From UHGV virus genome UHGV-0150809: DNA of 40,561 nt; one strand, written 5' to 3'. Position numbers and translations under genes: made by a program. The notes beneath the pieces were generated by a model. The model was not told the origin of the DNA. It worked only from the letters and a program-made list of their open reading frames with translations, and ran no database searches. Below, piece by piece: positions 10,692-30,604 of this stretch. The stretch is from a virus. Numbering within the stretch: position 1 is the first letter of the stretch; every line of letters begins with the position of its first letter.

Positions 10692-11022
10692 ATCAGCAGC
10701 AGAGCGCAAAGCCGCTCAGAGAGCCAGACAAGCTGCATCTGGTGTGCGTAAGCTGGAGATTGTGCTTGATGCTCAGGAAATTGAAATGCTGGAGCGTAAC
10801 TGTGCCACGCGTCGCCCCGGGCGTGCGCCTTACGAATTTGGTGAGTATATAGCGTTACTGATCCGCCAGGATGATGCACGCGTGCGCGGGCGTATAAAAT
10901 CGATCAGCAGAAAACGTTGCGGTAAGTGCGGCGAGAGAGTTCCAGTTAATTCATGCCCGTGTAATGGTGACTCGCAATGCTGGGTGACTAAAGGCTGGCA
11001 TGAAACGAAATTAATAGTGTGA
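10684..11022 (+). CDS. Ribbon-helix-helix plus C-terminal zinc-ribbon protein at the early/late junction (candidate late-gene regulator)
   Basis: 112 aa; RKLEIVLDAQEIEMLERN fits an RHH strand-helix; C-terminal CGKCGERVPVNSCPCNGDSQC cysteine cluster; last gene before the late promoter/terminator region. Confidence 0.45.
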   Translation: MAKSAAERKAAQRARQAASGVRKLEIVLDAQEIEMLERNCATRRPGRAPYEFGEYIALLIRQDDARVRGRIKSISRKRCGKCGERVPVNSCPCNGDSQCWVTKGWHETKLIV

Positions 11023-11030
11023 CATGTCAC
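11019..11030. repeat. 12-bp perfect palindrome GTGACATGTCAC, copy 1, overlapping the stop codon of the RHH-Zn gene
   Basis: Exact sequence read; identical copies at 13284-13295 and 30568-30579. Confidence 0.6.
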
Positions 11031-11071
11031 GAGTAGATTATGCATGATGAATTTGATGGATTTTGAATACT

Positions 11072-11097
11072 GCCGCCAACTATGGCGGCTTTATTTT
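11072..11097 (+). terminator. Rho-independent terminator immediately upstream of the terminase genes (tR'-like)
   Basis: GCCGCCA-acta-TGGCGGC hairpin followed by TTTATTTT, about 45 bp before the terminase small-subunit start. Confidence 0.5.
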
Positions 11098-11140
11098 GCA
11101 TGGTACTATTACCACAACGGTAACAATTACCACGGTGGTT

Positions 11141-11737
11141 ATGATGCCTGCTGAACCTAAAACCTATAAACGCAAATCAACGCAATTTAAGCCGCTCACA
11201 GCAATGCAGGAGGCTTATTGCCAGTCATACATCAAAACGCCTGAAAACCAGACTCAGGCTGCGATTAACGCAGGATTCTCCCCAAATACAGCGGCAGTTA
11301 AAGCCAGTGTCATGATGCGCGATGAACGCATTCAGAAACGGATTGCCGAGTTGATGGAGGAGCGCAACAAACGAATGCGTGTCAGTGCTGATTACGTTCT
11401 CATGCGCCTGGTGGAGATCGACCAGATGGACGTGATCGACATCCTCAACGACGATGGGAGCCTTAAACCAATCCGTGAGTGGCCGAAAATCTGGCGCACT
11501 ACGCTTAGTGGCTTTGATCTGTCATCGACCATCATGAACATGAACGAGGATTCAATAGAGACAATCCTCAAAAAAATTAAATGGCCTGACAAGGTGAAGA
11601 ACCTTGAGCTGATTGGTAAGCATGTTGATGTCAACGCATTCAAAGAACGTCTGGATGTTAATGTGAATGTGACAATTGCTGATCGCATAGCAGCAGCCAG
11701 GAAGCGACTCAAAGAACGTCAGGATGGTAATCAGTGA
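11141..11737 (+). CDS. Terminase small subunit
   Basis: Position immediately upstream of the large subunit with overlapping stop/start; ORF track 11063..11737 would begin inside the terminator hairpin, so the MMPAEPKTY start at 11141 is preferred. Confidence 0.55.
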   Translation: MMPAEPKTYKRKSTQFKPLTAMQEAYCQSYIKTPENQTQAAINAGFSPNTAAVKASVMMRDERIQKRIAELMEERNKRMRVSADYVLMRLVEIDQMDVIDILNDDGSLKPIREWPKIWRTTLSGFDLSSTIMNMNEDSIETILKKIKWPDKVKNLELIGKHVDVNAFKERLDVNVNVTIADRIAAARKRLKERQDGNQ

Positions 11738-13209
11738 CAGATACAGCGTTATCTCCTGAAGAGCAGTTAATCGAGGATATTGCAGGGTTCACTCACGATC
11801 CGCTTGGCTATGCCCTCTATGCGTTCCCGTGGGGGGAAGATGGGACTGAACTGGCACATGCCACCGGTCCACGTCAGTGGCAGGCTGATGCGTTCCGAGA
11901 GATACGTGATCACCTGCAGAATCCAGAGACGCGCTATCAGCCGCTTATGCTGGCACGCGCTTCGGGTCACGGTATTGGTAAATCCGCATTCATCTCAATG
12001 CTGATCAACTGGGGCATGTCCACTTGCGAGGATTGTAAGGTTGTGGTGACCGCCAACACCGACAACCAGCTACGAACGAAGACCTGGCCGGAAATTATCA
12101 AGTGGTCGAACCTTGCTATCACGAAAGACTGGTTTACCTGTACCGCTACCGCGATGTACAGCAATGATCCTGGACACGACAAGCGGTGGCGAGCTGACGC
12201 AATACCCTGGTCTGAGCACAACACTGAGGCATTCGCCGGACTACACAACGAGCGCAAACGCATCATCGTGGTATTCGATGAAGCGTCGAACATTGCGGAT
12301 CTGGTGTGGGAAGTTGCCGAGGGTGCGCTAACGGACGAAGACACTGAGATTATCTGGGTGGCGTTCGGAAACCCGACGCGTAATACCGGACGTTTCCGCG
12401 AATGTTTCCGCAAATATAAACACCGCTGGAAAACTGCGCAGATTGACAGCCGGACGGTGGAAGGCACCAACAAACAGCAGTTGCAGAAATGGGTTGATGA
12501 CTACGGGGAAGACAGCGACTTCGTTAAAATCCGTGTGCGCGGCATATTCCCGGATGCATCGGAATTGCAGTTTATCCCTACCGGACTTACTGACGAGGCA
12601 ATGAAACGGGTGGTCACCGCTGCGCAGGTTGCACATGCTCCGGTGATAATCGGCGTTGACCCGGCATACTCAGGCGTTGATGACGCTGTGATATACCTGC
12701 GGCAGGGGCTGCACAGTAAGGTGCTGTGGACTGGCAACAAGACCACTGACGATCTGATTATGGCAAAGCGTATCGCTGACTTTGAAGACCAGTATCAGGC
12801 TGACGCGGTGTTCATCGACTTCGGTTACGGAACCGGTTTGAAGTCAATCGGTGACGGATGGGGTCGTACATGGCAACTTGTTCCGTTCGGTGGCGCGTCT
12901 ACTGACCCGCAGATGCTCAACAAGCGTGGGGAGATGTTCAATTCATGCAAGACATGGCTGAGGCTGGGCGGCATGCTGGATGACCAGGAAACAGCGGACG
13001 ACCTGTCGGCGGCAGAGTACAAAGTTCGCGTGGACGGTAAAATCATTATCGAACAGAAGGAAGATATCAAGGAGCGGCTTGGGCGTTCTCCTGGTAAAGG
13101 CGATGCGCTACTGCTGACGTTTGCGTTCCCTGTGTCGAAGCGTCTGCGAATTCCCGGTCAGCAGAACCAGCAAGGCAAGGCCATCACAGATTACGATCCC
13201 TATGCTTAA
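11734..13209 (+). CDS. Terminase large subunit
   Basis: 491 aa; Walker-A-like ARASGHGIGKSAF, acidic ATPase motif IIVVFDEAS and C-terminal nuclease-like region; reported start is GTG overlapping the upstream stop. Confidence 0.8.
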   Translation: MTDTALSPEEQLIEDIAGFTHDPLGYALYAFPWGEDGTELAHATGPRQWQADAFREIRDHLQNPETRYQPLMLARASGHGIGKSAFISMLINWGMSTCEDCKVVVTANTDNQLRTKTWPEIIKWSNLAITKDWFTCTATAMYSNDPGHDKRWRADAIPWSEHNTEAFAGLHNERKRIIVVFDEASNIADLVWEVAEGALTDEDTEIIWVAFGNPTRNTGRFRECFRKYKHRWKTAQIDSRTVEGTNKQQLQKWVDDYGEDSDFVKIRVRGIFPDASELQFIPTGLTDEAMKRVVTAAQVAHAPVIIGVDPAYSGVDDAVIYLRQGLHSKVLWTGNKTTDDLIMAKRIADFEDQYQADAVFIDFGYGTGLKSIGDGWGRTWQLVPFGGASTDPQMLNKRGEMFNSCKTWLRLGGMLDDQETADDLSAAEYKVRVDGKIIIEQKEDIKERLGRSPGKGDALLLTFAFPVSKRLRIPGQQNQQGKAITDYDPYA

Positions 13210-13259
13210 TCCGCTGGTGGGGATAATGTCGTTGATATCCTCTGATGAGGATAAAACAA

Positions 13260-13295
13260 AGCCAGCTCATCGGCTGGCTGTTTGTGACATGTCAC
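13260..13295. repeat. Hairpin (AGCCAGC-tcatcg-GCTGGCT) plus GTGACATGTCAC palindrome copy 2 (13284-13295), between convergent genes
   Basis: Read directly from sequence. Confidence 0.55.
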
Positions 13296-13299
13296 TGCG

Positions 13300-13722
13300 T
13301 TAGAAGGTTATTTTATCGAATGCGGCGTTGATTGCCTTGGCGTCCTGCTCAGCACCAACCACATCAAGTAAAGATCTTTTACTAAGCACTTCAGCCAGGC
13401 ATTGTAACTTCATGTTGTATAAGTTTTCGCGCATGTAATCATCATCACTTTTTTCTTTGGCGTATACAGAGCGAGAAATATCAAACACATCGCCTTTTTC
13501 CATTTCAGAACGTTGTGCTGTTATCCAGTCATGGAACGTAACGCTAGTACCATGGTCTTCGCTAAGAGTTAACCCGGTCAGTCCCTCACTCTGAATTACT
13601 TCGTAATGCATTTCATTACCAGCAAAAACGCCATAAAAAACGCAGTCTTCAGCCTGAACGATACGAGAATATTTTAATGGCCATTCATTTAGATACTTAG
13701 CCAACATATCAATTGTCTTCAT
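13300..13722 (-). CDS. Hypothetical moron protein (140 aa), inverted inside the late operon
   Basis: Opposite strand to the flanking late genes; AAGGTGAGA RBS; visibly AT-richer than neighbours; no recognisable motif. Confidence 0.5.
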   Translation of the reverse strand: MKTIDMLAKYLNEWPLKYSRIVQAEDCVFYGVFAGNEMHYEVIQSEGLTGLTLSEDHGTSVTFHDWITAQRSEMEKGDVFDISRSVYAKEKSDDDYMRENLYNMKLQCLAEVLSKRSLLDVVGAEQDAKAINAAFDKITF

Positions 13723-13920
13723 AATCTCACCTTAAAAAAATGCCCGGCGAACCGGGCGAACTGGAAGCAATGAGTTATGCCTTCCGTGGCTGTACTGGTT
13801 TACAGCATGAAGTCATCGCAATGGCGTCCTGCTGTAAAAAGGGCGGTGATAGTCCTTCAAGGGAAACCATCACCGCCAAGCCCCTGGAACTTCTGGCATC
13901 ACGGTCCTTAGGCGTGATTC

Positions 13921-13997
13921 TGGCGTGGCATGCAGGATTCGAACCTGCGACCAACCGCTTAGAAGGCGGTTGCTCTGTCCAACTGAGCTAATGCCAC
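13921..13997 (-). tRNA. tRNA-Arg (anticodon UCU), argU-like
   Basis: Reverse complement folds as a 77-nt cloverleaf: acceptor GTGGCAT/ATGCCAC, D-arm GCTC-AGTTGGACA-GAGC, anticodon loop CTTCTAA, T-arm GCAGG-TTCGAAT-CCTGC, discriminator G and encoded CCA. Confidence 0.8.
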
Positions 13998-14319
13998 AAC
14001 GCTGAGAGCACTTAGCCTGTTAAGGCACCACACTTTGTCGCGGCTCCATAAATGCTCTCATCGTTGTACCCTCGTCTCTTCCGAGGCGTCACACCGAATC
14101 GCCGGGATGGTGAATCCCCGTGCGCGGAATAAAACCGCTCGACTTGCACATTCCGGCTACCTGGTTCGTTTGCCCGAGCAAGGGAGGGTGCCCCTTAAAC
14201 GTATCCAGACCGCTATCGTCGCATGTGCCATACGCCGTACTGCTCAAAATAAAAGCTCACTCCACCTGTTCAATTTAACGACAAGCCAGTCAGGTTAGTA
14301 ACCGGAATGAACTCTTTAG

Positions 14320-14334
14320 TTACCTGAAAGGTAA
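14320..14334. promoter_or_regulatory. Operator-like palindrome TTACCTGAAAGGTAA
   Basis: Perfect copy of the motif in the noncoding region between the tRNA and the connector gene. Confidence 0.4.
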
Positions 14335-14424
14335 TAATTCGCGCGTTAAATGTCAACTATCTACGATAAATAAATCATATGTGGTTAAATTGGTAATAAT
14401 TTAATTGCGTACGGAGTCATTGAT

Positions 14425-14631
14425 ATGTGCATGGGTAGCTCACCATCAGTGCCTGCAACACCAGAAGTTCAGGCAGCACCACAGGAGCAGGATGCTGCCG
14501 TTGTTGATGCCCGCGACGAAGAAACACGTCGCCGTCGCGCTGCTGCTGGTCGTAGTTCTACGCTGCTTACCGGTTCTCAGGGCGACACATCAACCGCTAA
14601 TACCAGCGGTAAAACGCTGCTTGGTCAGTAA
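14425..14631 (+). CDS. Small low-complexity ORF upstream of the connector gene
   Basis: 68 aa; ACGGAG RBS-like sequence 8 nt upstream; Ala/Arg/Thr-rich; an alternative overlapping frame (14405..14644) exists, so coding status is uncertain. Confidence 0.3.
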   Translation: MCMGSSPSVPATPEVQAAPQEQDAAVVDARDEETRRRRAAAGRSSTLLTGSQGDTSTANTSGKTLLGQ

Positions 14632-14645
14632 CCGGAGTCATTGAA

Positions 14646-16325
14646 ATGGCGGAAACAACTAAAGAGCGATTGAACAAACAGTTCGCACAACTTGAAAGCG
14701 AGCGTCAGTCGTTCGAGCCGCACTGGCGCGAGTTGAGTGATTACATCAACCCGCGTGGTTCCCGCTTTCTGACTTCTGAGGCCAACCGTAACGATCGGCG
14801 CAATACACGCATTATTGATTCGACCGGGACTATGGCGGCGCGCACTCTCGCCAGCGGCATGATGTCAGGCATCACAAGCCCCGCGCGTCCGTGGTTTCGC
14901 CTGGCTACGCCAGATCCTGAAATGATGGATTATGGCCCTGTTAAGTTGTGGCTTGAGGCAGTTCAGAACCGCATGAACGATATGTTCAATAAGTCGAATC
15001 TCTACCAGTCTCTTCCGCAGTTATACGGAAGCCTCGGCACATACAGCACTGGTGCAATGGCAGTGCTGGAGGATGACGAGGACATCATTCGCACAATGCC
15101 ATTCCCGATAGGCAGTTACTACCTGGCTAACTCACCTCGTGGCAGTGTTGACACCTGTTTTCGCAAGTTCTCTATGACTGTTCGTCAGCTTGTTCAGGAG
15201 TTCGGGCTAAATAACGTCAGCGAATCCGTAAAAAGCATGTGGGAAAGCGGCACCTACGAGAAGTGGATCGAAGTGAGGCATTCGGTTTACCCGAACATTG
15301 ACCGCGATACATCGAAGCTGGATAGCAAGAACAAGCCATTCAAATCGGTTTATTACGAGGTTGGTGGAGATAACGACAAGTTGTTGCGTGAGTCCGGATT
15401 CGATGAGTTTCCAATTATGGCTCCGCGCTGGGAAGTTAACGGCGAAGATGTTTATGGATCATCATGCCCGGGTATGCTGGCGCTTGGACCTGTTAAGGCA
15501 TTGCAGCTTCTCCAGAAGCGCAAGTCGCAGTTGATTGATAAAGCCACCAATCCGCCGATGGTTGCTCCGACTTCCCTCAAGAATCAGCGCGCCTCCCTTC
15601 TTCCTGGCGACATCACGTATATCGATCAGATTACTGGTCAGGATGGCTTCAGGCCTGCTTATCTGGTTAACCCCAGTACAGCAGATTTGGTGGCAGACAT
15701 TCAGGACACTCGTCAAATCATTAACAGCGCCTACTTTGTCGATCTGTTCATGATGTTGCAGAACATCAATACCCGCTCGATGCCTGTTGAAGCGGTGATC
15801 GAAATGAAAGAAGAAAAACTTCTGATGTTGGGGCCGGTTCTGGAGCGTCTGAACGACGAATGTCTTAATCCTCTCATTGACCGCGCTTTCTCGATGATGG
15901 TGCGCAAAAACATGCTGCCGCCACCGCCTGACGCGATGGAAGGCATGCCCCTGAAGGTCGAATACATTTCCGTCATGGCTCAGGCGCAGAAGTCTATCGG
16001 CCTGTCCAGTCTGGCGTCCACGGTTAACTTCATTGGTCAACTTGCGCAAGCGAAACCAGAAGCTCTCGACAAACTCAACGTTGATCAGGCGATCGATGCA
16101 TTCGCTGATATGTCCGGAGTGTCTCCAACCGTCATTGTTCCGCAGGAACAGGTTGAGCAGGCTCGCCAGCAACGGGCACAGCAACAACAGCAGCAACAAA
16201 TGATGGCGATGGGGATGGCGGCGGCACAGGGGGCCAAGACGCTAAGCGAAGCTAAAACTTCGGATCCGAGTGTGTTGTCAGCTATGGCGAATGCAGTTAG
16301 TGGTCAGGGTGGGCAATCACAATGA
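14646..16325 (+). CDS. Head-to-tail connector (portal), T7 gp8-like
   Basis: 559 aa; GGAG RBS; N-terminal ARTLASGMMSGITSPARPWFRLAT and Gln/Met/Ala-rich C-terminus (QQQQQQQMMAMGMAAAQGA) parallel T7 gp8 as recalled. Confidence 0.8.
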   Translation: MAETTKERLNKQFAQLESERQSFEPHWRELSDYINPRGSRFLTSEANRNDRRNTRIIDSTGTMAARTLASGMMSGITSPARPWFRLATPDPEMMDYGPVKLWLEAVQNRMNDMFNKSNLYQSLPQLYGSLGTYSTGAMAVLEDDEDIIRTMPFPIGSYYLANSPRGSVDTCFRKFSMTVRQLVQEFGLNNVSESVKSMWESGTYEKWIEVRHSVYPNIDRDTSKLDSKNKPFKSVYYEVGGDNDKLLRESGFDEFPIMAPRWEVNGEDVYGSSCPGMLALGPVKALQLLQKRKSQLIDKATNPPMVAPTSLKNQRASLLPGDITYIDQITGQDGFRPAYLVNPSTADLVADIQDTRQIINSAYFVDLFMMLQNINTRSMPVEAVIEMKEEKLLMLGPVLERLNDECLNPLIDRAFSMMVRKNMLPPPPDAMEGMPLKVEYISVMAQAQKSIGLSSLASTVNFIGQLAQAKPEALDKLNVDQAIDAFADMSGVSPTVIVPQEQVEQARQQRAQQQQQQQMMAMGMAAAQGAKTLSEAKTSDPSVLSAMANAVSGQGGQSQ

Positions 16326-16618
16326 CAGATTACGAAGACGATCAACTGAAAGAAGAAAACGCCCGTAAGCAACGTGACATGGCACAGCGTGAAATTGATG
16401 ACATTCGCTTTGTCATGAGCAGTGAACAGGGGCGTCGCGTTGTCTGGTCGGTGCTGGAGAAAGGCCGGGTGTTTTCCGCTATCTCTCCGATGGATGCTAT
16501 GGCAATGGCATTTAATGAGGGGCAACGCAATCTGGCGCTGGAACTGTTTCAGCGCGTTATGGCGCATTGCCCTGAACAGTATTTGAAGATGGCCAAAGAG
16601 GCCAGTGAACAGGAGTGA
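16322..16618 (+). CDS. Hypothetical head-assembly protein
   Basis: 98-aa ORF coupled to the connector stop. Confidence 0.45.
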   Translation: MTDYEDDQLKEENARKQRDMAQREIDDIRFVMSSEQGRRVVWSVLEKGRVFSAISPMDAMAMAFNEGQRNLALELFQRVMAHCPEQYLKMAKEASEQE

Positions 16619-16620
16619 TC

Positions 16621-17316
16621 ATGAGTTTATTTGAGCGTTTGCTGTATCGCCGTCTTTGCAATGAGCAACAAGTCGATGGTGGGGCAGCTCCGGCTGCGTC
16701 AGAACCGTCAGCGCATGCAGATGATAACCCTGCTCCAGTTGGTGATCCATCACAACAGGAAGGTGATAAGCCACAACCTGTTTCTGATGGCGATAAACCT
16801 GCTGATGACAAAAAGCCTGAAAACGATAAGCAGGATGAAAAAAAGGGCGGCGATAAACCAGAGGGTGCGCCTGAGAAGTACGAGTTTCAGGCTGCCGAAG
16901 GCGTAGAGCTGGATACAGAAGCGTTGAAGGAATTCGAGCCGGTGGCGCGAGAACTAAACCTGACCAACGAGCAAGCGCAAAAGCTGGTTGATGCTTATCC
17001 GAAGATTCTGGCAGGTGTTCAGCAGCGCCAGGCAGAAGCCTGGCAGAAAACAACCGAGCAGTGGGCTGCGGATGTAAAAGCTGACAAAGAAATCGGTGGC
17101 GACAAGTTGATTTCTAACCTTAGCGCCGCACAGCGTGCGCTTGACCAGTTCGGGACACCTGAACTCAAAGAATATCTGAACACCACCGGACTGGGTAATC
17201 ACCCTGACCTGGTCAAAACGTTCGTGAAAATCGGAAAGGCGATGTCTGAAGATGGCATGGTCACCGGTGGTAATGAAGGCCAGCGTAGTGCGGCCGAAGT
17301 GCTCTATGGCAAATAA
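16621..17316 (+). CDS. Scaffolding protein
   Basis: Acidic, Lys/Asp/Glu-rich low-complexity N-terminal half and helical C-terminal half; sits between connector and capsid genes; preferred start ATG 16621 after AGGAG. Confidence 0.55.
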   Translation: MSLFERLLYRRLCNEQQVDGGAAPAASEPSAHADDNPAPVGDPSQQEGDKPQPVSDGDKPADDKKPENDKQDEKKGGDKPEGAPEKYEFQAAEGVELDTEALKEFEPVARELNLTNEQAQKLVDAYPKILAGVQQRQAEAWQKTTEQWAADVKADKEIGGDKLISNLSAAQRALDQFGTPELKEYLNTTGLGNHPDLVKTFVKIGKAMSEDGMVTGGNEGQRSAAEVLYGK

Positions 17317-17324
17317 GAGAGGAA

Positions 17325-18317
17325 ATGACAATGGCTGTTAAAGGCTTAACTGCGCTAACGCTGGCTGACTGGGGTAAGCGCGTCGATCCAAACGGGAAAG
17401 TCGATAAGATTATCGAGCTTCTCGGTCAAACTAACCCGATCCTTCAGGATATGCCTTTTGTCGAAGGGAACCTTCCTACCGGACACCGAACCACCATTCG
17501 TTCTGGTTTACCTTCAGCTACCTGGCGTTTGCTGAACTATGGCGTACAGCCAAGCAAATCAACCACAGTGCAGGTAACCGATTCCGTTGGCATGCTGGAA
17601 ACCTATGCTGAAGTCGATAAGTCACTGGCTGATCTGAACGGCAATACCGCCGAATTCCGCCTGTCTGAAGACCGCGCATTTATTGAAGCGATGAATCAGC
17701 AGATGGCGCAGACGCTGTTTTATGGTGATTCCAGCGTTAACCCTCAGCAGTTTATGGGACTGTCCTCCCGCTATTCCAGCCTGTCTGCAGGTAATGCTCA
17801 GAACATCATTGATGCTGGTGGCACGGGCACAGATAACACCTCAATCTGGTTAGTGGTGTGGGGCGAAAACACCGTGCATGGCATCTTCCCGAAAGGGCAG
17901 AAGGCTGGCATTCAGATGGAAGATAAAGGCCAGGTGACACTGGAAGATGCTAATGGCGGCAAGTACGAAGGCTACCGTACCCATTACAAATGGGACAACG
18001 GACTTGCTCTGCGTGACTGGCGTTATGTTGTTCGCATTGCAAACATCGATGTCAGCAATCTTTCAGAACCTTCCTCTGCCGCAAATATTGCGAAGTTGAT
18101 GGTTAAAGCACTGCATCGCATTCCAAACCGTGGCATGGGTCGCCCGGTGTTCTACATGAACCGCACTGTAGGCCAGGCTCTTGATCTGCAGTCTCTGGAG
18201 AAAACATCTCTGGCGATTAGCGTAAAAGAGACTGAAGGCGAGTGGTGGACGTCATTCCGTGGTGTACCAATCCGTGAAACTGATGCGCTTCTGGAAACAG
18301 AAGCCCGCGTGGTGTAA
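17325..18317 (+). CDS. Major capsid protein
   Basis: 330 aa immediately after the scaffold gene; size and position typical; no specific family assigned. Confidence 0.65.
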   Translation: MTMAVKGLTALTLADWGKRVDPNGKVDKIIELLGQTNPILQDMPFVEGNLPTGHRTTIRSGLPSATWRLLNYGVQPSKSTTVQVTDSVGMLETYAEVDKSLADLNGNTAEFRLSEDRAFIEAMNQQMAQTLFYGDSSVNPQQFMGLSSRYSSLSAGNAQNIIDAGGTGTDNTSIWLVVWGENTVHGIFPKGQKAGIQMEDKGQVTLEDANGGKYEGYRTHYKWDNGLALRDWRYVVRIANIDVSNLSEPSSAANIAKLMVKALHRIPNRGMGRPVFYMNRTVGQALDLQSLEKTSLAISVKETEGEWWTSFRGVPIRETDALLETEARVV

Positions 18318-18368
18318 CGCCTGTTATTAACCTGTGGGTCGTAACAGACCCACTAATGGAGAAAGAAG

Positions 18369-18806: not shown

Positions 18807-18807
18807 G

Positions 18808-19526: not shown

Positions 19527-20131
19527 TGGCCTCTGTAGTAGAGATCTGTAATCGTGCGCTGTCCAATATTGGCAACAGCCGCAGTATTAACAGCCTGACG
19601 GAAGCCAGCAAGGAAGCGGGGGAATGTTCGCTGCACTTTGAGGCCTGCCGTGATGCTGTTCTTTCTGATTTTGACTGGAACTTTGCTACCAAACGCGTGG
19701 CGCTTGCAGATACGAGCAATCCACCGCCTGACTGGGAATATGCGTACCAGTACCCGTCCGATTGTCTGCGCATTACTGAAATTATGCTTCCTGGTGTACG
19801 CAATCCAACAGCAGCAATGCGCGTTCAGTACGAAGTTGGTGCAGACACCAACGGAACAGGAAAGTTGATCTACACAGACCAGCCGCAGGCATGGCTCAAG
19901 TATGTCTCTCGCGTTTCAGATGTGAACATGTTTGATGCCATTTTTATGGAGGCGTTGGCCTGGCGTCTTGCGGCAGCTATTAACATGGCGCTCACTGGGA
20001 ATGCAGACCTCGGTACGTTTGCCCTCAATATGTACAATCGCGTGATTCTTAGTGCTGGCTCGCATAGCCAGAATGAATCACAGGAACCACAGCCACCGGT
20101 TGACGAGTTTACCATTGCGAGGTTGTCCTGA
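19526..20131 (+). CDS. Tail tubular protein A (T7 gp11-like)
   Basis: About 200 aa; N-terminal CNRALSNIGNSRSINSL pattern resembles T7 gp11 (NDILASIGEPPVSTL); gene order as in T7; GGAGGT RBS. Confidence 0.55.
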   Translation: MASVVEICNRALSNIGNSRSINSLTEASKEAGECSLHFEACRDAVLSDFDWNFATKRVALADTSNPPPDWEYAYQYPSDCLRITEIMLPGVRNPTAAMRVQYEVGADTNGTGKLIYTDQPQAWLKYVSRVSDVNMFDAIFMEALAWRLAAAINMALTGNADLGTFALNMYNRVILSAGSHSQNESQEPQPPVDEFTIARLS

Positions 20132-22602: not shown

Positions 22603-23066
22603 TGATCGATGTTCGAATTATTCCCGCTACCGAAGAGCATCTTCAGATGATTTTGCCGGATGTTCGTCAGGCTGATATTGACGAACTGTATGCGGTATCG
22701 CTGATGACTACCAAAGATGCGCTGCGCGTTGGTCTGCGCACTGCGACTATGGCCTGGTCAGGGTTCGCGAACGGAGAACTGGTAACCATGTTTGGTGTAT
22801 CTCCGGCGTCAATGATCGGTGGCAATGGTACGCCATGGCTGGTCGGAACCAGCCGTATTGAAAAATATCAGAAGACATTTCTTCGCCACTGCCGCCCTGT
22901 ATTGCAGCAGATGCTGGCAGTTTATCCGCGCCTGGAAAACTACGTCGACGAGCGAAACCATGTTGCCAAAGCATGGCTGCACTGGCTTGGATTCAGGCTT
23001 GAAGAAGCCGCGCCTTATGGTGCTCTTGGTCTTAATTTCCACAGATTTCACATGGAGAGAAAATAA
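22602..23066 (+). CDS. Internal virion protein (gp13-like position)
   Basis: 154-aa ORF coupled to the upstream stop; assigned by size and order only. Confidence 0.4.
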   Translation: MIDVRIIPATEEHLQMILPDVRQADIDELYAVSLMTTKDALRVGLRTATMAWSGFANGELVTMFGVSPASMIGGNGTPWLVGTSRIEKYQKTFLRHCRPVLQQMLAVYPRLENYVDERNHVAKAWLHWLGFRLEEAAPYGALGLNFHRFHMERK

Positions 23067-23605
23067 TGTGTAACCCAGCCATCGCTTTGGTTGCCGTCAC
23101 AGTGGCATCCACAGCCGCGTCAATGTACAGCCAGAGCAAGCAGGCAAAATACCAGTCAGCCATAGCTGATCGGAATGCTGAAATTGCTGAAGTTCAGGCA
23201 CAGGATTCAATCAATCGTGGGAATATTGAAGCGGATCAGCGTCGTCGTGAAATGCGTCAACGCTCAGGCACTGCGGCGGCCACTATGGGGGCTACCGGTG
23301 CGGAATTAAGTAGCGGAACAGCTCTTGACGTTTTTGCGGATAATGCTCAGTTCGGCACTCTTGATGCGTTAACGACAGTGAATAATGCTCAGCGTGAGGC
23401 ATATGGGTATCAGGTTCAGGGAATGAATGCTCAGGCACAGGGGGCTGCTGCTCAGTCGGCTGCTAAATCATCGATGACCAGCACTTTGTTAACGGCACCA
23501 CTAAAAGCATACGGTGCATACCAGATGGGCGGCGGAACGTGGAGCCCGTTCTCTCAGAAGGCTGCGCCGATTTCTGCTGCTGTTGGCACTCCAACCGGTC
23601 GATAA
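23066..23605 (+). CDS. Internal virion protein B-like (gp14 position)
   Basis: 179 aa, Ala/Gln-rich with an N-terminal hydrophobic segment; assigned by order. Confidence 0.45.
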   Translation: MCNPAIALVAVTVASTAASMYSQSKQAKYQSAIADRNAEIAEVQAQDSINRGNIEADQRRREMRQRSGTAAATMGATGAELSSGTALDVFADNAQFGTLDALTTVNNAQREAYGYQVQGMNAQAQGAAAQSAAKSSMTSTLLTAPLKAYGAYQMGGGTWSPFSQKAAPISAAVGTPTGR

Positions 23606-23617
23606 GGGGATAATAAG

Positions 23618-26131
23618 ATGCCAGTTGTACCAACAACATCGGGCCGTCAGGTTCAGAGCAGAGGGATTTCGACGCAGGGATTCTCATCGTTTCAGACACC
23701 AAATGTCGGTGATGTACTTGGCGATGTTGCAGAGCAATATGCAGGTATTATTGCGCAGGCAAAACAGCGCGCGAATGTTGCTATGGCTCAGGATGCTTCT
23801 CTTAGCTTAAGCCAGATAAGCAGCGATCTGCTGAATAACCCTGAAACAGGTTTGCTTAACCTGAAAGGGAAAAATGCTATTGGAAAAGGTCAGGAGTATA
23901 CGCAGCAGTTTGATGCTCAGGTCGAACAACTGGCTATGTCGCTGCCGGATGAACAGGCTCGTAATGCTTTCATGCAGCAGGCGCAGCAGCAGCGTATTCA
24001 GTTCACTACGCAGGCCGGGCGGCACGAGATAGGGCAAATAAATGCCTACGAAGAAGGTCAGTTTCAGGCTACGCTGCTGAACAATGGTAAAAATGCCGCA
24101 GCATTGTATGGCGACAACGCCGCATACGTATTGGCTAATAAGCAAACTTTCCAGCAAATTGAGGATTACGGCATTGCGCATGGCTGGAGCGACGAGCAAA
24201 TCCAGGCCAAGAAAATCGAGTTTAAAGAGAAGGTTGCTGATGCCGCATTGTCCCAGTGGTCGGCAAACAATGCGACCGCATTCATCCAAAGTAATGGCGA
24301 GTTAAGTGATACTGCTGCTGGAGCTCGCCGTGCTGTAGCCGATAGTGACTCTTCCGATCGTGCCCGTGGCATACGCAACAATAACCCAGGAAATCTCGAA
24401 TACAGCAAAACTAATCCGTGGGTAGGCCAGACCGGTGATGATGGTCGATTTGCTAAATTCGAAACACCTGAACACGGGATTCGTGCATTAGGGCGGAACC
24501 TGATGTCGTATCATAGGCAGGGTATTGATACCGTCAGCGAGATAATTAATCGCTGGGCACCGCCCACTGATAAAAATGACACTATGTCGTATATCAAAGC
24601 AGTGTGCGAACAACTTGGCGTTTCTGCTGATGAGCCTCTCGATGCATCAAATCCTGATACCCTGAAGGCGCTTTGTGCAGCCATTATCCATCATGAGAAC
24701 GGTAGCCATCCATACAGTGATCAGCAGTTAACTGCTGGTGTCAGTGCAGCACTTGGTTTATCAACAATTCCAACCAACACCAAACGCTATACCGGTAATG
24801 CAGCATTCGATGCGGCATCTTCTGAGGCGCAGGCAAGTTTTATGCGACAGGCGGATCAACTGCGTCGGCAGCAGCAGGATGAATATAAAACGATGATTGA
24901 CAGCCAGGTTCGCGATGCGACAGCTGCGTATATGCGTGGCGTTGAATTTCCTAACCCACCTGGTGAGGATGATTTTATTGCAGCTTATGGAGTCAGAGAA
25001 GGAAACCTGCGATATACCGAGTTTAAGAATACGCAGATCGCCGGACAGTATATAGGCTCTTTCCGCAACATGCCGACAAGCAGCATTACAGCATATGTTG
25101 AGCAATTACGCCCGGATACTGGTGAGACAGGGGAGGGTTATGCGTCTCGCGCAGCTCTTTATGACAACGTTGTTTCGGCTGCAAATCAGGTGATAAAGCA
25201 GCGGCAGTCGGATCCTGTGCAGTTCTCTCTTGCCTCCGGACAGGCAAAGCCTATCGACATGAGCAATAAGGATAACTTTGGACATAGCGTTGCCTTGCGT
25301 GCCGCTCAGGTCAGTGACCTTGCTAAGTCATATGGCACTCCACTGACGTTCTTTTCCAAAGACGAGGCCAATCAGATCGGTGTTTTCTTTCGTGATGCTC
25401 CAGTTTCTCAACAGGCAGCATATCTCGATACCATCAGGCAGAGCACTGGTGGTGGGCAGGTGTATATGTCAGCACTACAGCAGATCAGTGCCAACGCTCC
25501 ATCTGCTGCCGTTGCCGGGATACTGATGGACAAGCCTGGTGGTATTTTGGCAGAAAAAAACTGGTTTAATCCGGATGTTTCCGTGTCTCCTGAAACCGCT
25601 GCGCAGACAATTCTTGCTGGCGCGGCGGCTCGTAAAGGTACTGATGATGCGAAAGGTATTCCGATGCCTAAAGATGCTGATCTTCGCCTTGAGTTTTCTG
25701 ACATGGTGAAGGATGCATTTGCTGGTGATGCTCAGGGGGCATCAATGGCATACGAGATCGCAAAGGACTATTACGCTGGTGTGATGGCGAAAAAAGGCGT
25801 GATATCAGGCGAAATTGACACTGATATCTGGAAACAGGCTGTTAACGTAGCTACAGGTGGCGTGCATGACTATAACGGAATGGGGAATGTCCTTTTGCCG
25901 TGGGGAATGTCTGCAGAGCAATTCGATAAGCAGGTTAATCAGGCTTGGAATGAACAAGTTGTCGGCACCGGGATAAAAACACCGCCTGGTCAGTATGGTT
26001 TGCAAAGTTACGGCGATAGTCAGTACCTGGTGAAACTTGGTACTGGTTATCTGCTGAAAGATGATGGTTCTCCTGTTGTTCTTGATCTGACACAGAAGCG
26101 TCAGAGATTCTCCGGAGATATTCCGCAATGA
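23618..26131 (+). CDS. Internal core/ejection protein (gp15 position) with a possible cell-wall-active insert
   Basis: 837 aa; segment RGIRNNNPGNLEYSKTNPWVGQ...FAKFETPEHGIRA is enzyme-like; assigned by order. Confidence 0.5.
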   Translation: MPVVPTTSGRQVQSRGISTQGFSSFQTPNVGDVLGDVAEQYAGIIAQAKQRANVAMAQDASLSLSQISSDLLNNPETGLLNLKGKNAIGKGQEYTQQFDAQVEQLAMSLPDEQARNAFMQQAQQQRIQFTTQAGRHEIGQINAYEEGQFQATLLNNGKNAAALYGDNAAYVLANKQTFQQIEDYGIAHGWSDEQIQAKKIEFKEKVADAALSQWSANNATAFIQSNGELSDTAAGARRAVADSDSSDRARGIRNNNPGNLEYSKTNPWVGQTGDDGRFAKFETPEHGIRALGRNLMSYHRQGIDTVSEIINRWAPPTDKNDTMSYIKAVCEQLGVSADEPLDASNPDTLKALCAAIIHHENGSHPYSDQQLTAGVSAALGLSTIPTNTKRYTGNAAFDAASSEAQASFMRQADQLRRQQQDEYKTMIDSQVRDATAAYMRGVEFPNPPGEDDFIAAYGVREGNLRYTEFKNTQIAGQYIGSFRNMPTSSITAYVEQLRPDTGETGEGYASRAALYDNVVSAANQVIKQRQSDPVQFSLASGQAKPIDMSNKDNFGHSVALRAAQVSDLAKSYGTPLTFFSKDEANQIGVFFRDAPVSQQAAYLDTIRQSTGGGQVYMSALQQISANAPSAAVAGILMDKPGGILAEKNWFNPDVSVSPETAAQTILAGAAARKGTDDAKGIPMPKDADLRLEFSDMVKDAFAGDAQGASMAYEIAKDYYAGVMAKKGVISGEIDTDIWKQAVNVATGGVHDYNGMGNVLLPWGMSAEQFDKQVNQAWNEQVVGTGIKTPPGQYGLQSYGDSQYLVKLGTGYLLKDDGSPVVLDLTQKRQRFSGDIPQ

Positions 26132-27930
26132 GTTACTTTGGCCTTAATCCAGTAAACCAGAATCAGCAACTTGACGAAGCAGCATCAAATCCAGCGGGCT
26201 TTAACAGCGATGTTGGTTTTTTCGACAATGCTGTAGGAGCGGCATTGTCTGGTTTGTACTCCGGGCTGGTGGCAAAGCCAGATCAGTTGCTATGGGCTGG
26301 GATGGATAAAATCGTATCCCCGATTGCTCAGTTTATTAACGAAAACACCTCGCTCAATGATACTTCAGTTTCATACATTGCCGAGCAGAGAAAACTAGCA
26401 GAGCAGCAGGTTAAGCGGCTGACTCCTGATGCCGCGACAACCGGAACCGCCGGGCAGGTTCTTTATGGGTTGTTCGATATGGGCGGGCAGGCTGTTGTCG
26501 GTACAACGCTCGGTGGTCCTGTCGGAGGTGCAGCGGCGGTAACTTCGCTACAGGGTTTTTCTGAGTTTGAACGGCTGATAGCACAGGGTGTTGATTTCAG
26601 GACGGCGCAGGAAGCGGGATTAGTGCAGGGCATTACTGCTGGTGCCGGAACACTGATCCCTATGAGCCTCGGGTTACGTGCTGGTGGTGCGCTGGCGGAA
26701 GGTGTGGCGGCTCAGCTTGCGCGGACGGGTGAGAGTTCAGTGCGACGCGCCGCAGCAACAGCAGTACGTGCAACGCCAGATATTGCCTATGCCGCAGGTA
26801 CAAATATTGCGTTCGGTATGGCACAGCGTGGGCTTACTGCAAAAACGCTTCGTGATGGTGGCTATAGCGAAATGGCTAACCAGTATGATGTGTTGGATCG
26901 ACAGGCAATTGCTATTGATGCTGTTCTTGGGGTGGCGTTTGGTGGTGTCGGCAGATTTATTAACTCTCGCGGCGAGTCTACAAGCGCACCAAATTTTTCA
27001 CCAGTTGATATCGATGCTGCACTGGCGGCGAATGCCGCTCATCATGCTGAAATTGATATTGCTCCTGGCGTGCCGATCAACGTGCTTTCGCGTAATTCTC
27101 ACATTCAGGCTCTGCGAAAAGCCATGTCTGATGTTAGCCAGGGGAGACCTGTAGACGTTGCCAGCATTGTTGAGTCTGCATCTTTCAGTGAAATCCCTGG
27201 GCACAAGAGTCTGCTTTCTCAGGCAGTTAATGAGGCTCTGTCATCTGTAGATGATGGAAAAACGGCGCGCGCTATAGAAAATCGGTTGCTTGAAGAACAG
27301 GCCGCGCAGCTTTTGTCGCGTGGCGATAGACAGGTTTACCAGTCTGAAATCGCTAATAGCCAACGAATTATCGACAATCTCACTGAACAGCGCGCACAAA
27401 TTCTTGCAGAAGAGCCAACTGGTAGCGGTAAAGCTTTGTCTCGTGCTCGATCAGATAAACAGGCCAGAATTCGCGATATTGACCAACGAATCCGGCAGGC
27501 ACAAGAACGCCTGGAATTTTCCCGTAACGCGTTGGCACCGCATGAGCCTGGCGGTCAGTTTTTTGAAGCTCGAGCAGAACTGGCACGGAGACAGCAGGCT
27601 GAAAGTGAACTTAATGCTCAGGCTGTTTCATTCTATAAAACAGCAGAGGTCAGGACGCCAGACGAAGTAGCTCCTTTTGAGCCCGGTAAGATATTGCAAC
27701 AGACAGAACAAAAAATGATGGCAGATCCGGCAGGAGATATTGATCTGCGTATAGCTGAAGACTCGCTGCTTGAATCTCCGGACATGATAATCACCGTGCT
27801 GGATGATGATGGTAATCCACAATCGCGCAGTGCGCGTGAAGTACTGGATGAAGCGAACAGGGAAAGTGAGCAGGCAATACAGGATTCCAGCCTGTTTGAT
27901 GTTGCTGTGGCGTGTTTCTTGAGAGGTTAA
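26128..27930 (+). CDS. Internal core/ejection protein
   Basis: 600-aa ORF coupled to the upstream gene; Gly/Ala-rich N-terminus, coiled-coil C-terminus. Confidence 0.5.
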   Translation: MSYFGLNPVNQNQQLDEAASNPAGFNSDVGFFDNAVGAALSGLYSGLVAKPDQLLWAGMDKIVSPIAQFINENTSLNDTSVSYIAEQRKLAEQQVKRLTPDAATTGTAGQVLYGLFDMGGQAVVGTTLGGPVGGAAAVTSLQGFSEFERLIAQGVDFRTAQEAGLVQGITAGAGTLIPMSLGLRAGGALAEGVAAQLARTGESSVRRAAATAVRATPDIAYAAGTNIAFGMAQRGLTAKTLRDGGYSEMANQYDVLDRQAIAIDAVLGVAFGGVGRFINSRGESTSAPNFSPVDIDAALAANAAHHAEIDIAPGVPINVLSRNSHIQALRKAMSDVSQGRPVDVASIVESASFSEIPGHKSLLSQAVNEALSSVDDGKTARAIENRLLEEQAAQLLSRGDRQVYQSEIANSQRIIDNLTEQRAQILAEEPTGSGKALSRARSDKQARIRDIDQRIRQAQERLEFSRNALAPHEPGGQFFEARAELARRQQAESELNAQAVSFYKTAEVRTPDEVAPFEPGKILQQTEQKMMADPAGDIDLRIAEDSLLESPDMIITVLDDDGNPQSRSAREVLDEANRESEQAIQDSSLFDVAVACFLRG

Positions 27931-27935
27931 ATTAA

Positions 27936-30410
27936 ATGAGACAGGAATGTATACAAGCGGTCCAGCAGGCGGCGCAGCGCACGTTAACGGCGCGAGAAAT
28001 ACAGAACATTGAAGACCGCATTTATCGAAATATGCGCTCCATTGCTCGTGATGATCCGATGTCGTGGCGACAACTTTCCGAATCAGAACGGTTGTATCGT
28101 GCAGCACAATTGGCATCTGAAGAATTACAGCGAGAAGCGGCATTAAAGAAACGTCGTGTGGCTCTCACTATAGCCGCACGTCAGAGATTGGATAAATTTA
28201 TCAATAGCTATCAAGGGGCTGATGGGAAACTTGGCGCTCTTAACCGTACTATTGCTTTTAATGCAGACGGTAAATCGAATTTCCTCTCTGTTGAATCCAG
28301 AACAAAAGCCACTCGTGATTATGCATTGAGTCAATTGCAGGAGGCATTTGAAGCAGTTGATCCTCGCTTTTTTGGCCTGTTTGAAGATGAAGCTGGCGTG
28401 CGTGACCTGGTATATGAAATGCGAGGGCAAAATACTGGCAATGCTAAAGCAAGAAAAGGTGCTAAGGCGTGGAGAGAAGTGACAGAGCTACTGCGCCGCC
28501 GGTTTAATGATGCTGGTGGGGACATTGGCTATCTCGAAAACTGGGGGATCCCTCAACATCATTCTATGGAAAAGGTTGGGGCGGTATCAAAGGATAAGTG
28601 GGTTAGCGATGTTATAGGTAAGCTGGATCGCAAATATTATACCCGAGTCGATGGACAACTGATGAACGATGCCGAGTTGTCTGCATTTCTTGGAGAGGCT
28701 TATAACACGATCGCTACTGGTGGGCTGAATAAGCTTACTGATACCGGAATGCGAATTTCCGGCGCACGTGCTAACCGGGGTAATGCATCACGACAGATAC
28801 ATTTCAAAGATGCAGATTCCTATCTGCAATATCAGCAACTTTATGGCGATCGCTCTCTATGGGAAATCATGGTCGGTCACCTGGAAGGTATCAGTAAAGA
28901 TATTGCACTGGTGGAAACATATGGCCCAAACCCCGATCATGTTTTCCGCTCTCTTCTTGATCAGGTGAAGGCAGAAACGGCAACAGCTAACCCGAGTAAA
29001 ACCGGTAAAGTCGAGCGGCTGGCGAACAACACAGAGAATCTGTACAACTTTATTTCCGGAAAGACACAGCCTGTAGCGAATCCGCACATCGCGCGCTGGT
29101 CTGACAATATCCGCAACTGGCTGGTTGCCAGCCGACTAGGATCCGCGTTGCTGTCATCGTTCTCTGATCTTGGAACCATGTATCTGTCTGCGAAGGTGAC
29201 CAACCTTCCAATGAACCAGTTATTCCGCAACCAGCTTGAAGCTATGGACCCAACGAACCGTACTGAGCTTGCGCGGGCGCGCCGCGCTGGTCTGGCGATG
29301 GAATCTCTACTTGGCAGTGTTAACCGCTGGGCAATGGATAATATGGGGCCGTCTGTGTCTCGTTGGGCGGCAACGGCGGTAATGCGTGCCAGTGGGCTTA
29401 CAGCATGGTCAGATGCGCACAAGCGCGCCTATGGCGTAACAATGATGGGAAGCCTGGGAGAGGTAGTGTCACGGACACCAGACCTTCGTAGCCTCGATGA
29501 CTCTGATTTTCGTATCCTGAAAAGCAAAGGGATTACTGAAACAGACTGGAGCGTATGGAAGCTGGCGCAACAGGAGGACTGGGGGAACGGCAATAATACG
29601 ATGCTGACACCGGAAAGCATTATGCGTATCCCTGATTCAGCAGTTAAACATCTTGGTGAGCCTGAACGCGTGAAATTTGAGGCAATGCGTAAACTTCTCG
29701 GTGCCGTAACTGAAGAAGTTGATATGGCTGTTATTACACCGGGAGCACGTGAGCAACTGATAACCGGTTCTGGTATTCAGCGTGGAACATGGAAAGGTGA
29801 ATTAACGAGAAGTGTTTTCCTGTTTAAATCGTTCCCTATCTCGGTAGTTATGCGTCACTGGTCACGCGCTATGGGTATGCCGTCTGCTGGTGGGCGTGCG
29901 GCATATATTGCGACGTTTATTGCCAGTACGACCATTCTTGGCGCTTTGTCGCAGCAACTTAACGACCTTGCGTCTGGTCGTAATCCTCGCGAGATGACAG
30001 GAGAAGATGCTGCTAAATTTTGGCTTGGTGCTCTACTGAAAGGTGGTGGTCTTGGCCTTTACGGTGACTTTTTATTGTCAGATCACACTAGGTACGGAAG
30101 CGGCGCGCTGGCGTCGATGCTTGGCCCGGTAGCTGGTCTGGTTGATGACGTAGTGAAGATTGCTCAGGGCATACCGTTAAATGCTGTGGAAGGGAAGAGT
30201 GAGCAGACTGGTGGTGATCTGGTGAAGCTGGGGAAAGGTTTGATGCCAGGTGCGAATCTCTGGTACTTAAAGGCGGCTCTCGATCACATGATCTTTAACC
30301 AGATGCAGGAGTATTTTTCACCAGGCTATTTGCGTAAAATGGAGCAACGTTCGAAGAAAGAGTTTAACCAGACATACTGGTGGCGACCACAGGATGTCAC
30401 TCCGCAATAA
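27936..30410 (+). CDS. Internal core/ejection protein (gp16-like)
   Basis: 824 aa, last large gene of the structural block; assigned by order and size. Confidence 0.5.
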   Translation: MRQECIQAVQQAAQRTLTAREIQNIEDRIYRNMRSIARDDPMSWRQLSESERLYRAAQLASEELQREAALKKRRVALTIAARQRLDKFINSYQGADGKLGALNRTIAFNADGKSNFLSVESRTKATRDYALSQLQEAFEAVDPRFFGLFEDEAGVRDLVYEMRGQNTGNAKARKGAKAWREVTELLRRRFNDAGGDIGYLENWGIPQHHSMEKVGAVSKDKWVSDVIGKLDRKYYTRVDGQLMNDAELSAFLGEAYNTIATGGLNKLTDTGMRISGARANRGNASRQIHFKDADSYLQYQQLYGDRSLWEIMVGHLEGISKDIALVETYGPNPDHVFRSLLDQVKAETATANPSKTGKVERLANNTENLYNFISGKTQPVANPHIARWSDNIRNWLVASRLGSALLSSFSDLGTMYLSAKVTNLPMNQLFRNQLEAMDPTNRTELARARRAGLAMESLLGSVNRWAMDNMGPSVSRWAATAVMRASGLTAWSDAHKRAYGVTMMGSLGEVVSRTPDLRSLDDSDFRILKSKGITETDWSVWKLAQQEDWGNGNNTMLTPESIMRIPDSAVKHLGEPERVKFEAMRKLLGAVTEEVDMAVITPGAREQLITGSGIQRGTWKGELTRSVFLFKSFPISVVMRHWSRAMGMPSAGGRAAYIATFIASTTILGALSQQLNDLASGRNPREMTGEDAAKFWLGALLKGGGLGLYGDFLLSDHTRYGSGALASMLGPVAGLVDDVVKIAQGIPLNAVEGKSEQTGGDLVKLGKGLMPGANLWYLKAALDHMIFNQMQEYFSPGYLRKMEQRSKKEFNQTYWWRPQDVTPQ

Positions 30411-30419
30411 GGATGAGAA

Positions 30420-30560
30420 ATGATTGCTTTTATTCTTGTTGTGTTTGCGCTTGTTGCACTTGGCGTTATGAACCGTAAATGTATCATTGACGATGGCGAA
30501 TTTGCTGTTGCAGTTATTTTGATATTATCTGGTGTAGCAGGGTACATAGGCTTGTCATAA
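30420..30560 (+). CDS. Small hydrophobic protein (46 aa; not in ORF track)
   Basis: Hand-translated MIAFILVVFALVALGVMNRKCIIDDGEFAVAVILILSGVAGYIGLS; AAGGATGAG RBS; two predicted transmembrane helices. Confidence 0.3.
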   Translation: MIAFILVVFALVALGVMNRKCIIDDGEFAVAVILILSGVAGYIGLS

Positions 30561-30567
30561 CGTGAGC

Positions 30568-30604
30568 GTGACATGTCACAGGCCGCTTTCGCGGCCTTGT
30601 TTTT
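30568..30604 (+). terminator. GTGACATGTCAC palindrome copy 3 (30568-30579) followed by a rho-independent terminator (GGCCGC-tttc-GCGGCC plus T-run) ending the structural operon
   Basis: Read directly from sequence. Confidence 0.6.

Follow-up and report, generated by a model that had tools for sequence, protein, structure and literature searches.

A conserved 12-bp palindrome at three gene ends of a Uetakevirus genome and its linkage to a predicted phage DNA-binding regulator

Introduction

Why does a perfect 12-bp palindrome, GTGACATGTCAC, recur in three exact copies in one temperate phage genome, each time where a transcription unit ends? The genome in question, UHGV-0150809 (40,561 nucleotides, analysed over its whole length and referred to below as the window), belongs to an epsilon15/phiV10-like podophage of the genus Uetakevirus and is 95-97% identical over the region to the E. 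coli phages PAS61, HEMP4 and phiV10. A preliminary description of this DNA had offered three possible answers: a binding site for a regulator, with the ribbon-helix-helix (RHH)-zinc protein encoded beside the first copy as the obvious candidate, an RNA processing signal, or a recombination hotspot at module boundaries. The comparative evidence described here points to the first of these. We consider it somewhat more probable than an even chance that the palindrome is a double-stranded DNA operator of the 112-residue protein encoded at 10684-11022 and acts as a barrier at gene ends. The operator reading is favoured because the motif is conserved, is linked to this gene in unrelated phages, has the symmetry of a dimer site and lies at gene ends.

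Three exact copies close three consecutive transcription units

An exact search placed the three identical copies where they had first been reported, at 11019-11030, 13284-13295 and 30568-30579, and found none elsewhere in the window. Chance can be ruled out as their origin, in agreement with the earlier judgement. The 12-mer was present in none of 100 dinucleotide-preserving shuffles; among 300 Markov-1 simulations a perfect 12-nt palindrome occurred three times in none and twice in only 4; and the core GTGAC-NN-GTCAC is expected 0.036 times in the window. Nor is the 12-mer a fragment of a longer common repeat or of a host repetitive element, a possibility that the preliminary description had itself raised: the likeness among the three copies ends at 12-13 nt, their flanks are unrelated, and the motif is solitary in other genomes. 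When up to two mismatches were allowed, a single extra site emerged in the window, GTGACATGGCAC at 16374-16385, with one mismatch. It lies inside an open reading frame (ORF) of the structural region (16322-16618), has the same letters in close relatives only and is probably a coding-sequence coincidence.

Copy 1 overlaps the TGA stop codon (11020-11022) of the plus-strand gene 10684-11022, which encodes the 112-residue candidate binding protein, a member of the epsilon15 gp49 / phiV10 p55 / N15 gp46 family (PHROG 536). Coding constraint was rejected as an explanation for this copy, as the ORF takes in only 4 of its 12 bases. The palindrome ends 41 nt 5' of a terminator hairpin (11072-11089), upstream of terS; hairpin and T-run together form the intrinsic terminator of the early-right operon (11072-11097, plus strand), identified by a terminator scan and RNA folding. 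The account of copy 1 as sitting on a stop codon ahead of a terminator and the terminase genes is thereby borne out.

Copy 2 lies between the terminator that follows terL and the 3' end of a minus-strand accessory gene (13300-13722), 4 nt past the hairpin 13260-13279 on one side and 4 nt from the stop codon 13300-13302 on the other. This terminator between terL and the convergent gene (13250-13283) was found by the terminator scan and by RNA folds of both strands. Its T-run is better on the minus strand; read that way, the stop codon comes first and is followed by the palindrome, the hairpin and the T-run. Copy 3 is at the end of the structural-gene operon, 7 nt past the TAA (30558-30560) of its last gene, a phiV10 p21-like small membrane-protein gene (30420-30560, plus strand; assigned from sequence and the phiV10 annotation). 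The intrinsic terminator of that operon (30580-30606, plus strand; hairpin 30580-30597 and T-run, from scan and RNA fold) begins one base past copy 3, so that palindrome and hairpin directly abut. Copies 2 and 3 had been said to abut terminator hairpins; this is strictly so for copy 3, and copy 2 is 4 nt away.

For every copy the distance is 0-7 nt from the preceding stop codon and 0-41 nt from the nearest intrinsic terminator, and when read along the nearest gene each shows the order stop codon, palindrome, terminator. The units that they end are three consecutive rightward ones: the early-right (nin-like) unit, the terS-terL unit (terS 11141-11737 and terL 11734-13209, plus strand, from the ORFs and the annotation of relatives), which is bracketed by copies 1 and 2, and the structural genes.

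The palindrome is preserved at the homologous junctions of related phages

The same 12-mer was sought at the homologous junctions of related phages, and it is present there. In a motif-anchored comparison of 8-10 Uetakevirus genomes from four host genera, conservation is 0.98-1.00 in the 12 columns of the palindrome and 0.58-0.88 in the 24 nt on each side. PAS61, epsilon15 and Tyrion carry the palindrome at all three junctions, and the relatives that have it there come from Escherichia, Salmonella and Enterobacter, with flanks that are diverged or swapped. One-base variants occur at one junction each in phiV10 (copy 1), BUCT554 (copy 1), SPNIS2 (copy 2) and PAT1 (copy 2); two of these four changes are central (GTGACAGGTCAC) and leave both half-sites intact. 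The position and register of copy 1 are the same in epsilon15, PAS61, TL-2011b, Tyrion, SPNIS2, PAT1 and Klebsiella phi13.3, and copy 2 is kept after terL in phiV10, PAS61, epsilon15, Tyrion and BUCT554. Copy 3 is 100% conserved in 9 Uetakevirus genomes, where its flanks score 0.64-0.66, and the structural operons of epsilon15 and BUCT554 end with an equivalent gene whose stop codon is the TGA within the palindrome. The most constant copy is the one at the stop of the 112-residue gene.

The surroundings of copy 2 bear on the recombination hypothesis. The slot at 13296-13722 holds a replaceable minus-strand gene, which in the window is a PHROG 4846 gene of unknown function (13300-13722, from the ORF list and a PHROG match) with no match in a PADLOC search. 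Close relatives show more than 10 unrelated 3' ends in this slot. Across 80 of them (IMG/VR) the sequence to the left of copy 2 does not change, and to its right more than 10 different genes occur, all of which have their stop codon 4 nt from the palindrome. At least three different downstream modules follow copy 1, and the PHROG 536 gene and its home site (by which we mean the motif at the 3' end of a homologue's own gene) move as a pair among phages of unrelated types; in two Vibrio phages an integrase gene is next to or near the PHROG 536 gene. Such a pattern would suit a site or hotspot of cassette exchange, whether a serine-type recombinase makes its crossover there, at a 2-bp centre, or homologous recombination uses the palindrome as a conserved patch for joining modules. 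However, Uetakeviruses, ZF40 and N15 encode no dedicated recombinase that goes with the motif, proteins of the RHH/zinc type are not recombinases, and the variable centre of the motif would block serine-recombinase exchange between sites. Any conserved element flanked by accessory genes also resembles a swap boundary. We regard exchange at the palindrome as very unlikely to be its function. What stands of the hotspot proposal is that the sites coincide with module-swap boundaries; with no matching recombinase encoded, it is one of the weaker options.

In some relatives a strong promoter that overlaps a LexA box, together with a small gene, is inserted between the home palindrome and terS, for example at 17685-18008 in Klebsiella phi13.3 (small gene of PHROG 2100) and at 7860-8260 in BUCT554 (UmuD-like). 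An SOS-controlled gene after the home site was considered as the target of the element and rejected, as this insert is found in only some relatives and the LexA box of N15 lies farther downstream.

The motif accompanies PHROG 536 genes in unrelated phages

PHROG 536 carries the label 'transcriptional regulator'. Homologues of the 112-residue protein are encoded by the myovirus ZF40, the linear plasmid-prophages N15 and phiKO2, Vibrio siphophages, P2-like Yersinia phages and lambdoid prophages. Pectobacterium phage ZF40, whose homologue is 67% identical, has TGTGACATGTCACA exactly three times, one of them 2 nt past the homologue's stop. N15 and phiKO2 (homologue about 35%) each carry three GTGACYRGTCAC in homologous places, including one over the TGA stop of gene 46/45; none of them is an annotated SopB partition site. 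Three GTGAC-NN-GTCAC sites are present in Vibrio phage K233 (about 31%), one of them 19 nt (motif end to ATG) upstream of terS, and the one site of Vibrio phage 10N.237 (about 35%), GTGACAGGTCAC, lies over the homologue's stop. A P2-like Yersinia phage (about 39%) has one exact copy and a one-mismatch copy 33 bp off. The standard motif is missing from Aeromonas phage 85AhydR10PP (about 32%), which has the asymmetric variant GTGTCCGGTCAC three times (at 19904, 44302 and 46954), one copy being 14 nt upstream of the homologue's start; this variant hints at co-evolved specificity.

The linkage also holds in counts. Sites of the form Y-GTGAC-NN-GTCAC-R, one to four per genome, were found in 16 of 17 genomes that encode a homologue, against 0.02-0.05 expected, and there were none in the three genomes that lack one (lambda; the N15-like PY54; KPP5665-2). 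The motif thus co-occurs with the gene and is absent from the three genomes without it, as would be looked for in an operator of a PHROG 536 protein. Among prophage loci from different bacterial species, 35 of 39 contain at least one copy, and in 31 the motif lies at the gene or no more than 40 nt after it. Conversely, of the viral stretches chosen solely by the 14-mer, 32 of the 120 fetched encode a homologue within them, usually with the motif on its stop.

In the fetched loci, the motif lies no more than 12 nt after an ORF stop at 64 of 68 home sites and 65 of 171 other sites, compared with 3.8% of random positions. Because TGA is part of the motif on either strand, the shared stop-codon register is less telling than it looks; what counts is that site and stop codon are adjacent. 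A strict terminator follows within 100 nt of the home site in 9 of 31 cases, against 1.2% of controls. As a general rule, terminator adjacency was rejected, since only 8 of 132 contexts outside the home-site class directly abut a terminator; it is a feature of Uetakevirus and of many home sites, and only partly general. The suggestion that the palindrome is a site for the adjacent RHH-zinc protein has therefore gained strong comparative support, in that the motif follows the family, sits nearly always at the 3' end of the gene and is missing from three genomes that lack the gene; its association with terminators needs to be narrowed.

Several individual arrangements were seen along the way. 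In ZF40 (5125 and 7622) and further phages of its type, the cI/cro immunity region lies between two copies that are about 2.1-2.5 kb apart, one in the leftward operon and one in a cII-like gene, a geometry that recalls looping operator pairs. The Yersinia phage vB_YenM_42.18 (11675-11719) and other contigs combine an exact site with near-copies or extra GTGAC(A) half-sites at a spacing of about 20-33 bp, which suggests that P2-like and some other contigs have multi-site operators. A motif that Rahnella-type prophages carry about 10 kb upstream falls within a coding region; it may be shared by descent and not be an independent occurrence.

A two-fold symmetric DNA site that differs from known motifs

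To describe the motif we used 121 distinct sites that had not been chosen by the 14-mer, with the half-sites GTGAC/GTCAC fixed by the search pattern. The centre dinucleotide is AT in 93 of them, AC in 9, AG in 6, CA in 6, CC in 5 and GC in 2, and the base outside the half-site, on which there was no selection, is a pyrimidine in 97% of half-sites. From these sites the full consensus reads Y-GTGAC-NN-GTCAC-R, with AT at the centre in the window. Invariant half-sites around a free centre argue for a two-fold symmetric DNA-binding dimer, since an RNA hairpin would be expected to covary.

This bears directly on the idea of an RNA element that would act in the untranslated 3' ends of the three transcripts, through processing, stability, nut-like antitermination or RNA-RNA pairing. 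Along the direction of transcription all three copies do lie between a stop codon and a terminator hairpin, and centroid folds give a stem-loop of 4-5 bp at copies 1 and 2. Yet the hairpin amounts to -1.2 kcal/mol, no better than shuffles, and its loop is itself palindromic. The half-sites are invariant from E. coli to Vibrio phages without covariation, the bases between them change freely, and elsewhere many sites fall in coding regions or upstream of promoters, in either orientation. An RNA element is in our estimate highly doubtful, and the RNA processing signal of the preliminary description is correspondingly weakened. The same folding energy, and the lack of a T-run, exclude the palindrome as an intrinsic terminator in its own right; the real terminators are the adjoining hairpins.

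The closest known site is matS of E. coli, GTGAC[AG]N[TC]GTCAC (PMC3603311) or, as a consensus, GTGACATTGTCAC (PMC8669397). The phage half-sites, GTGAC(A), are identical to those of matS in the form GTGACA-N-TGTCAC (PMC3603311, PMC8669397). MatP likewise uses an RHH module. Whereas matS has 13 bp and a 3-nt centre, all 121 phage sites have 12 bp and a 2-nt centre, are phage-borne and track a phage gene, and no 13-mer matS occurs in the window; identity with matS was rejected on these grounds. A host factor, chiefly MatP, could still be imagined to bind the palindrome as a matS minus its central base, so as to recruit or evade MatP/MukBEF. The hosts of the family, Enterobacterales, Vibrio and Aeromonas, are lineages that have MatP. 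But the motif follows the phage gene and not the host, with 0 copies in PY54 and lambda on similar hosts, and homology of the phage protein to MatP was rejected, the hhalign probability against the MatP profile being 0.5% and not significant; the four-helix bundle and coiled coil of MatP are absent from the phage protein. True matS sites are, in addition, avoided by prophages (PMC3603311). The chance that a host factor is the cognate protein appears very slight. In Vibrio phage K233, position 19491 has one true match to the 13-bp matS pattern besides the three 12-bp sites.

Other candidates were likewise set aside. The SlmA binding site (SBS, consensus GTGAGTACTCAC), likewise a 12-bp palindrome, agrees in the outer GTGA/TCAC, but its positions 5/8 are G/C around a central TA, where the window has C/G and AT. 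The CRP site, TGTGA-N6-TCACA, has a spacer of 6 bp and not the 4 bp found here, (T)GTGA-CATG-TCAC(A). The operator of the epsilon15-type prophage repressor, ATTACC-N5-GGTAAT, is a different motif, and the ten TTACC-N5-GGTAA sites of the window lie elsewhere. The SopB centromere of N15 and phiKO2 consists of GTGCGACCACGGTCGCAC-type inverted repeats, and the sites annotated in phiKO2 differ in sequence and position from GTGACYRGTCAC. The GenBank record of epsilon15 annotates many binding sites, this palindrome not among them. In the searchable literature we found no description of the motif, of an RHH/zinc phage regulator or of a function for the family, though the epsilon15 and phiV10 genome papers may hold a prior one.

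The candidate binding protein

Alignments of the family show a basic N-terminal helix, a short extended segment and two helices, an RHH-like arrangement, followed by a Cys-rich tail in which C79, C82, C91, C93, C99 and H106 are conserved. Two AlphaFold runs returned the same order of helices with low confidence (predicted local distance difference test scores of 57 and 63). Searches of Pfam, NCBIfam and PDB sequences with the 112-residue protein gave no usable match, and PADLOC gave no link to a defence system. With the family profile, the best matches among PDB sequences were TraR and YbiI, both DksA/TraR zinc fingers, at E of about 0.03. An hhalign comparison with TraR reached 76% probability over the long helix and the Cys motif, the second CxxC being replaced by scattered Cys. 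The C-terminal long helix, the motif Cys-x2-Cys-Gly-x2-(I/L)-Pro and a later Cys align with TraR. Unlike TraR/DksA-type proteins, which have a C4 finger of the form CxxC-x17-CxxC, the phage protein is without the usual fourth Cys and is fused to a predicted DNA-binding N-terminus, and no family member matches the Pfam DksA/TraR zinc-finger model at E<0.1. The likeness is marginal, a lead and not an assignment.

This lead feeds the main alternative that keeps the same binding event. The protein would be a Q-like modifier of RNA polymerase, loaded at a site next to a terminator, where it would contact polymerase, possibly through a TraR/DksA-like finger; it would alter the efficiency of termination so that early transcription continues into terS-terL and the structural genes. 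In the window the regulator gene is followed by the site, a terminator and the terminase genes, an order that mirrors lambda Q, the Q binding element with PR', tR' and the late genes. The Uetakevirus annotations list no Q-like protein. The half-site GTGACA resembles a -35 hexamer, with a weak promoter-like match starting in copy 1, and the C-terminal half of the family aligns with TraR as just described. On the other hand, there is no sequence similarity to lambda Q and no promoter-proximal pause element was identified, and ZF40, N15, phiKO2 and Gifsy-like prophages have a family member plus a Q-like antiterminator. Promoter regions with operators of their own serve both terS and the structural operon, the accessory gene on the minus strand is the only one for which copy 2 comes before a terminator, and the TraR similarity suffers from the shortcomings already given. 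We judge a Q-like role to be unlikely, though not negligible.

More speculative, and in our view rather improbable, is a reading of PHROG 536 as a widespread, so far unrecognised class that joins a site-specific RHH DNA-binding domain to a TraR/DksA-like polymerase-binding finger, its members acting at gene ends on elongating or terminating RNA polymerase itself, as programmable termination or antitermination factors. Such proteins may interfere with MatP/MukBEF or stay invisible to it, because the sites carry matS half-sites one base out of register.

The natural class for comparison is that of phage and plasmid RHH regulators with short palindromic operators (P22 Arc and Mnt, CopG, MetJ, omega, ParG and TraM). 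Compared with these, the phage protein has an additional C-terminal domain that is Cys-rich and conserved, it gives no Pfam RHH match above threshold, and its sites are at the 3' ends of genes and not at its own promoter, as single isolated sites and not in tandem arrays.

A possible barrier at gene ends

To return to the operator reading, the three palindromes are most likely docking sites for the 112-residue protein, and by analogy we infer a roadblock or insulator function at gene ends. A dimer of the RHH-like, putatively zinc-binding protein would bind each copy of the palindrome. As the last product of the early-right operon, the protein would accumulate and fill the three gene-end sites. 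At copy 1, bound protein would block RNA polymerase just short of the gene end and give transcripts without a stop codon, hence negative feedback; occupancy there would limit the regulator itself and read-through toward terS. At copies 2 and 3 it would form a two-way barrier that reinforces the terminators and prevents transcription from running on between neighbouring or convergent units, and occupancy would curtail the last genes, namely the accessory gene 13300-13722 and the small gene 30420-30560.

There is a precedent in LacI. According to the summary in PMC3711431 (citing Abo et al. 2000), LacI bound at O3, at the 3' end of lacI, acts as a roadblock that yields truncated, stop-less mRNA, SsrA tagging and autoregulation. 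The operator is there, too, at the 3' end of the regulator's own gene (PMC3711431), just as copy 1 lies on the stop codon of its own. The phage system differs in having an RHH-like fold and not the helix-turn-helix of the LacI/GalR type, and in having two more sites at the ends of other units. By these comparisons, the phage element would act most like a short RHH operator, and its placement is most like lacI-O3.

Several observations weigh against this interpretation. A barrier right ahead of a good intrinsic terminator looks redundant, and on the plus strand the palindrome at site 2 comes after the terminator and not before it. Klebsiella phi13.3 has only decayed forms of sites 2 and 3, and TL-2011b has a replacement in the place of site 2, so these two sites are dispensable. 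Outside the genus many sites are intragenic or near promoters, with 8 of 132 directly abutting a terminator; because placement varies in this way, the family may act differently in different phages. Finally, the link between gene and motif is correlative.

Taken together, the comparisons indicate that the pair of gene and site is real, conserved and wide in distribution, and it is apparently undescribed. It would be of a known kind, a phage DNA-binding regulator with a palindromic operator; this particular pair and its placement at gene ends appear to be new. If the assignment is true, it gives a function and a defined 14-bp operator to a family annotated only as 'hypothetical' or 'transcriptional regulator'. 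Temperate phages and prophages of Escherichia, Salmonella, Klebsiella, Pantoea, Yersinia and Vibrio carry this family by the hundreds, the well-studied N15 and epsilon15 among them. Sites on the regulator's own stop codon and at operon ends by terminators are unusual for a phage regulator, and such placement suggests control of transcription-unit boundaries, through insulation, roadblock autoregulation or shut-off of accessory genes, and not of promoters. The site also marks where accessory genes swap, which is useful for the annotation and engineering of prophages, and its near-identity to matS raises the question of cross-talk with the organization of the host chromosome.

Other features of the genome

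The motif TTACC-N5-GGTAA, which the epsilon15 record annotates as a prophage-repressor site, has ten copies in the window (3802, 3864, 4576, 6907, 6969, 11109, 14320, 31426, 32467 and 32560). These precede most transcription units, including terS and the structural operon, which suggests that one repressor directly controls many separately promoted units. With repressor-type sites ahead of most units, the genome therefore appears as a chain of separately promoted, terminator-bounded units. The phiV10 annotation puts the start of terS at a TTG corresponding to window position 11063, from which the gene would run through the terminator hairpin and the operator; a start at ATG 11141 (198 residues, as in epsilon15) is more plausible.

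Four direct repeats of CCAAAAACGGGA lie at 5534-5675 in the replication-initiator gene (5272-6087), three of them at 24-bp spacing; like the repeats in the lambda O gene, they are probably iterons of the origin. At 33623-33642 there is a LexA box, AACTGTATAAATATACAGTA, that is close to perfect. It lies beside a small ORF on the minus strand (33346-33621) and ahead of the tailspike gene; a LexA box is also present at the homologous place in epsilon15 (about 19841), and the box may mark an SOS-controlled gene of the antirepressor type. Past copy 3, the convergent unit encodes on the minus strand a protein with a YafO-toxin-like domain (30666-31238; Pfam E 1.2e-5) and an Ant-like anti-repressor (31514-32353; PHROG 130).

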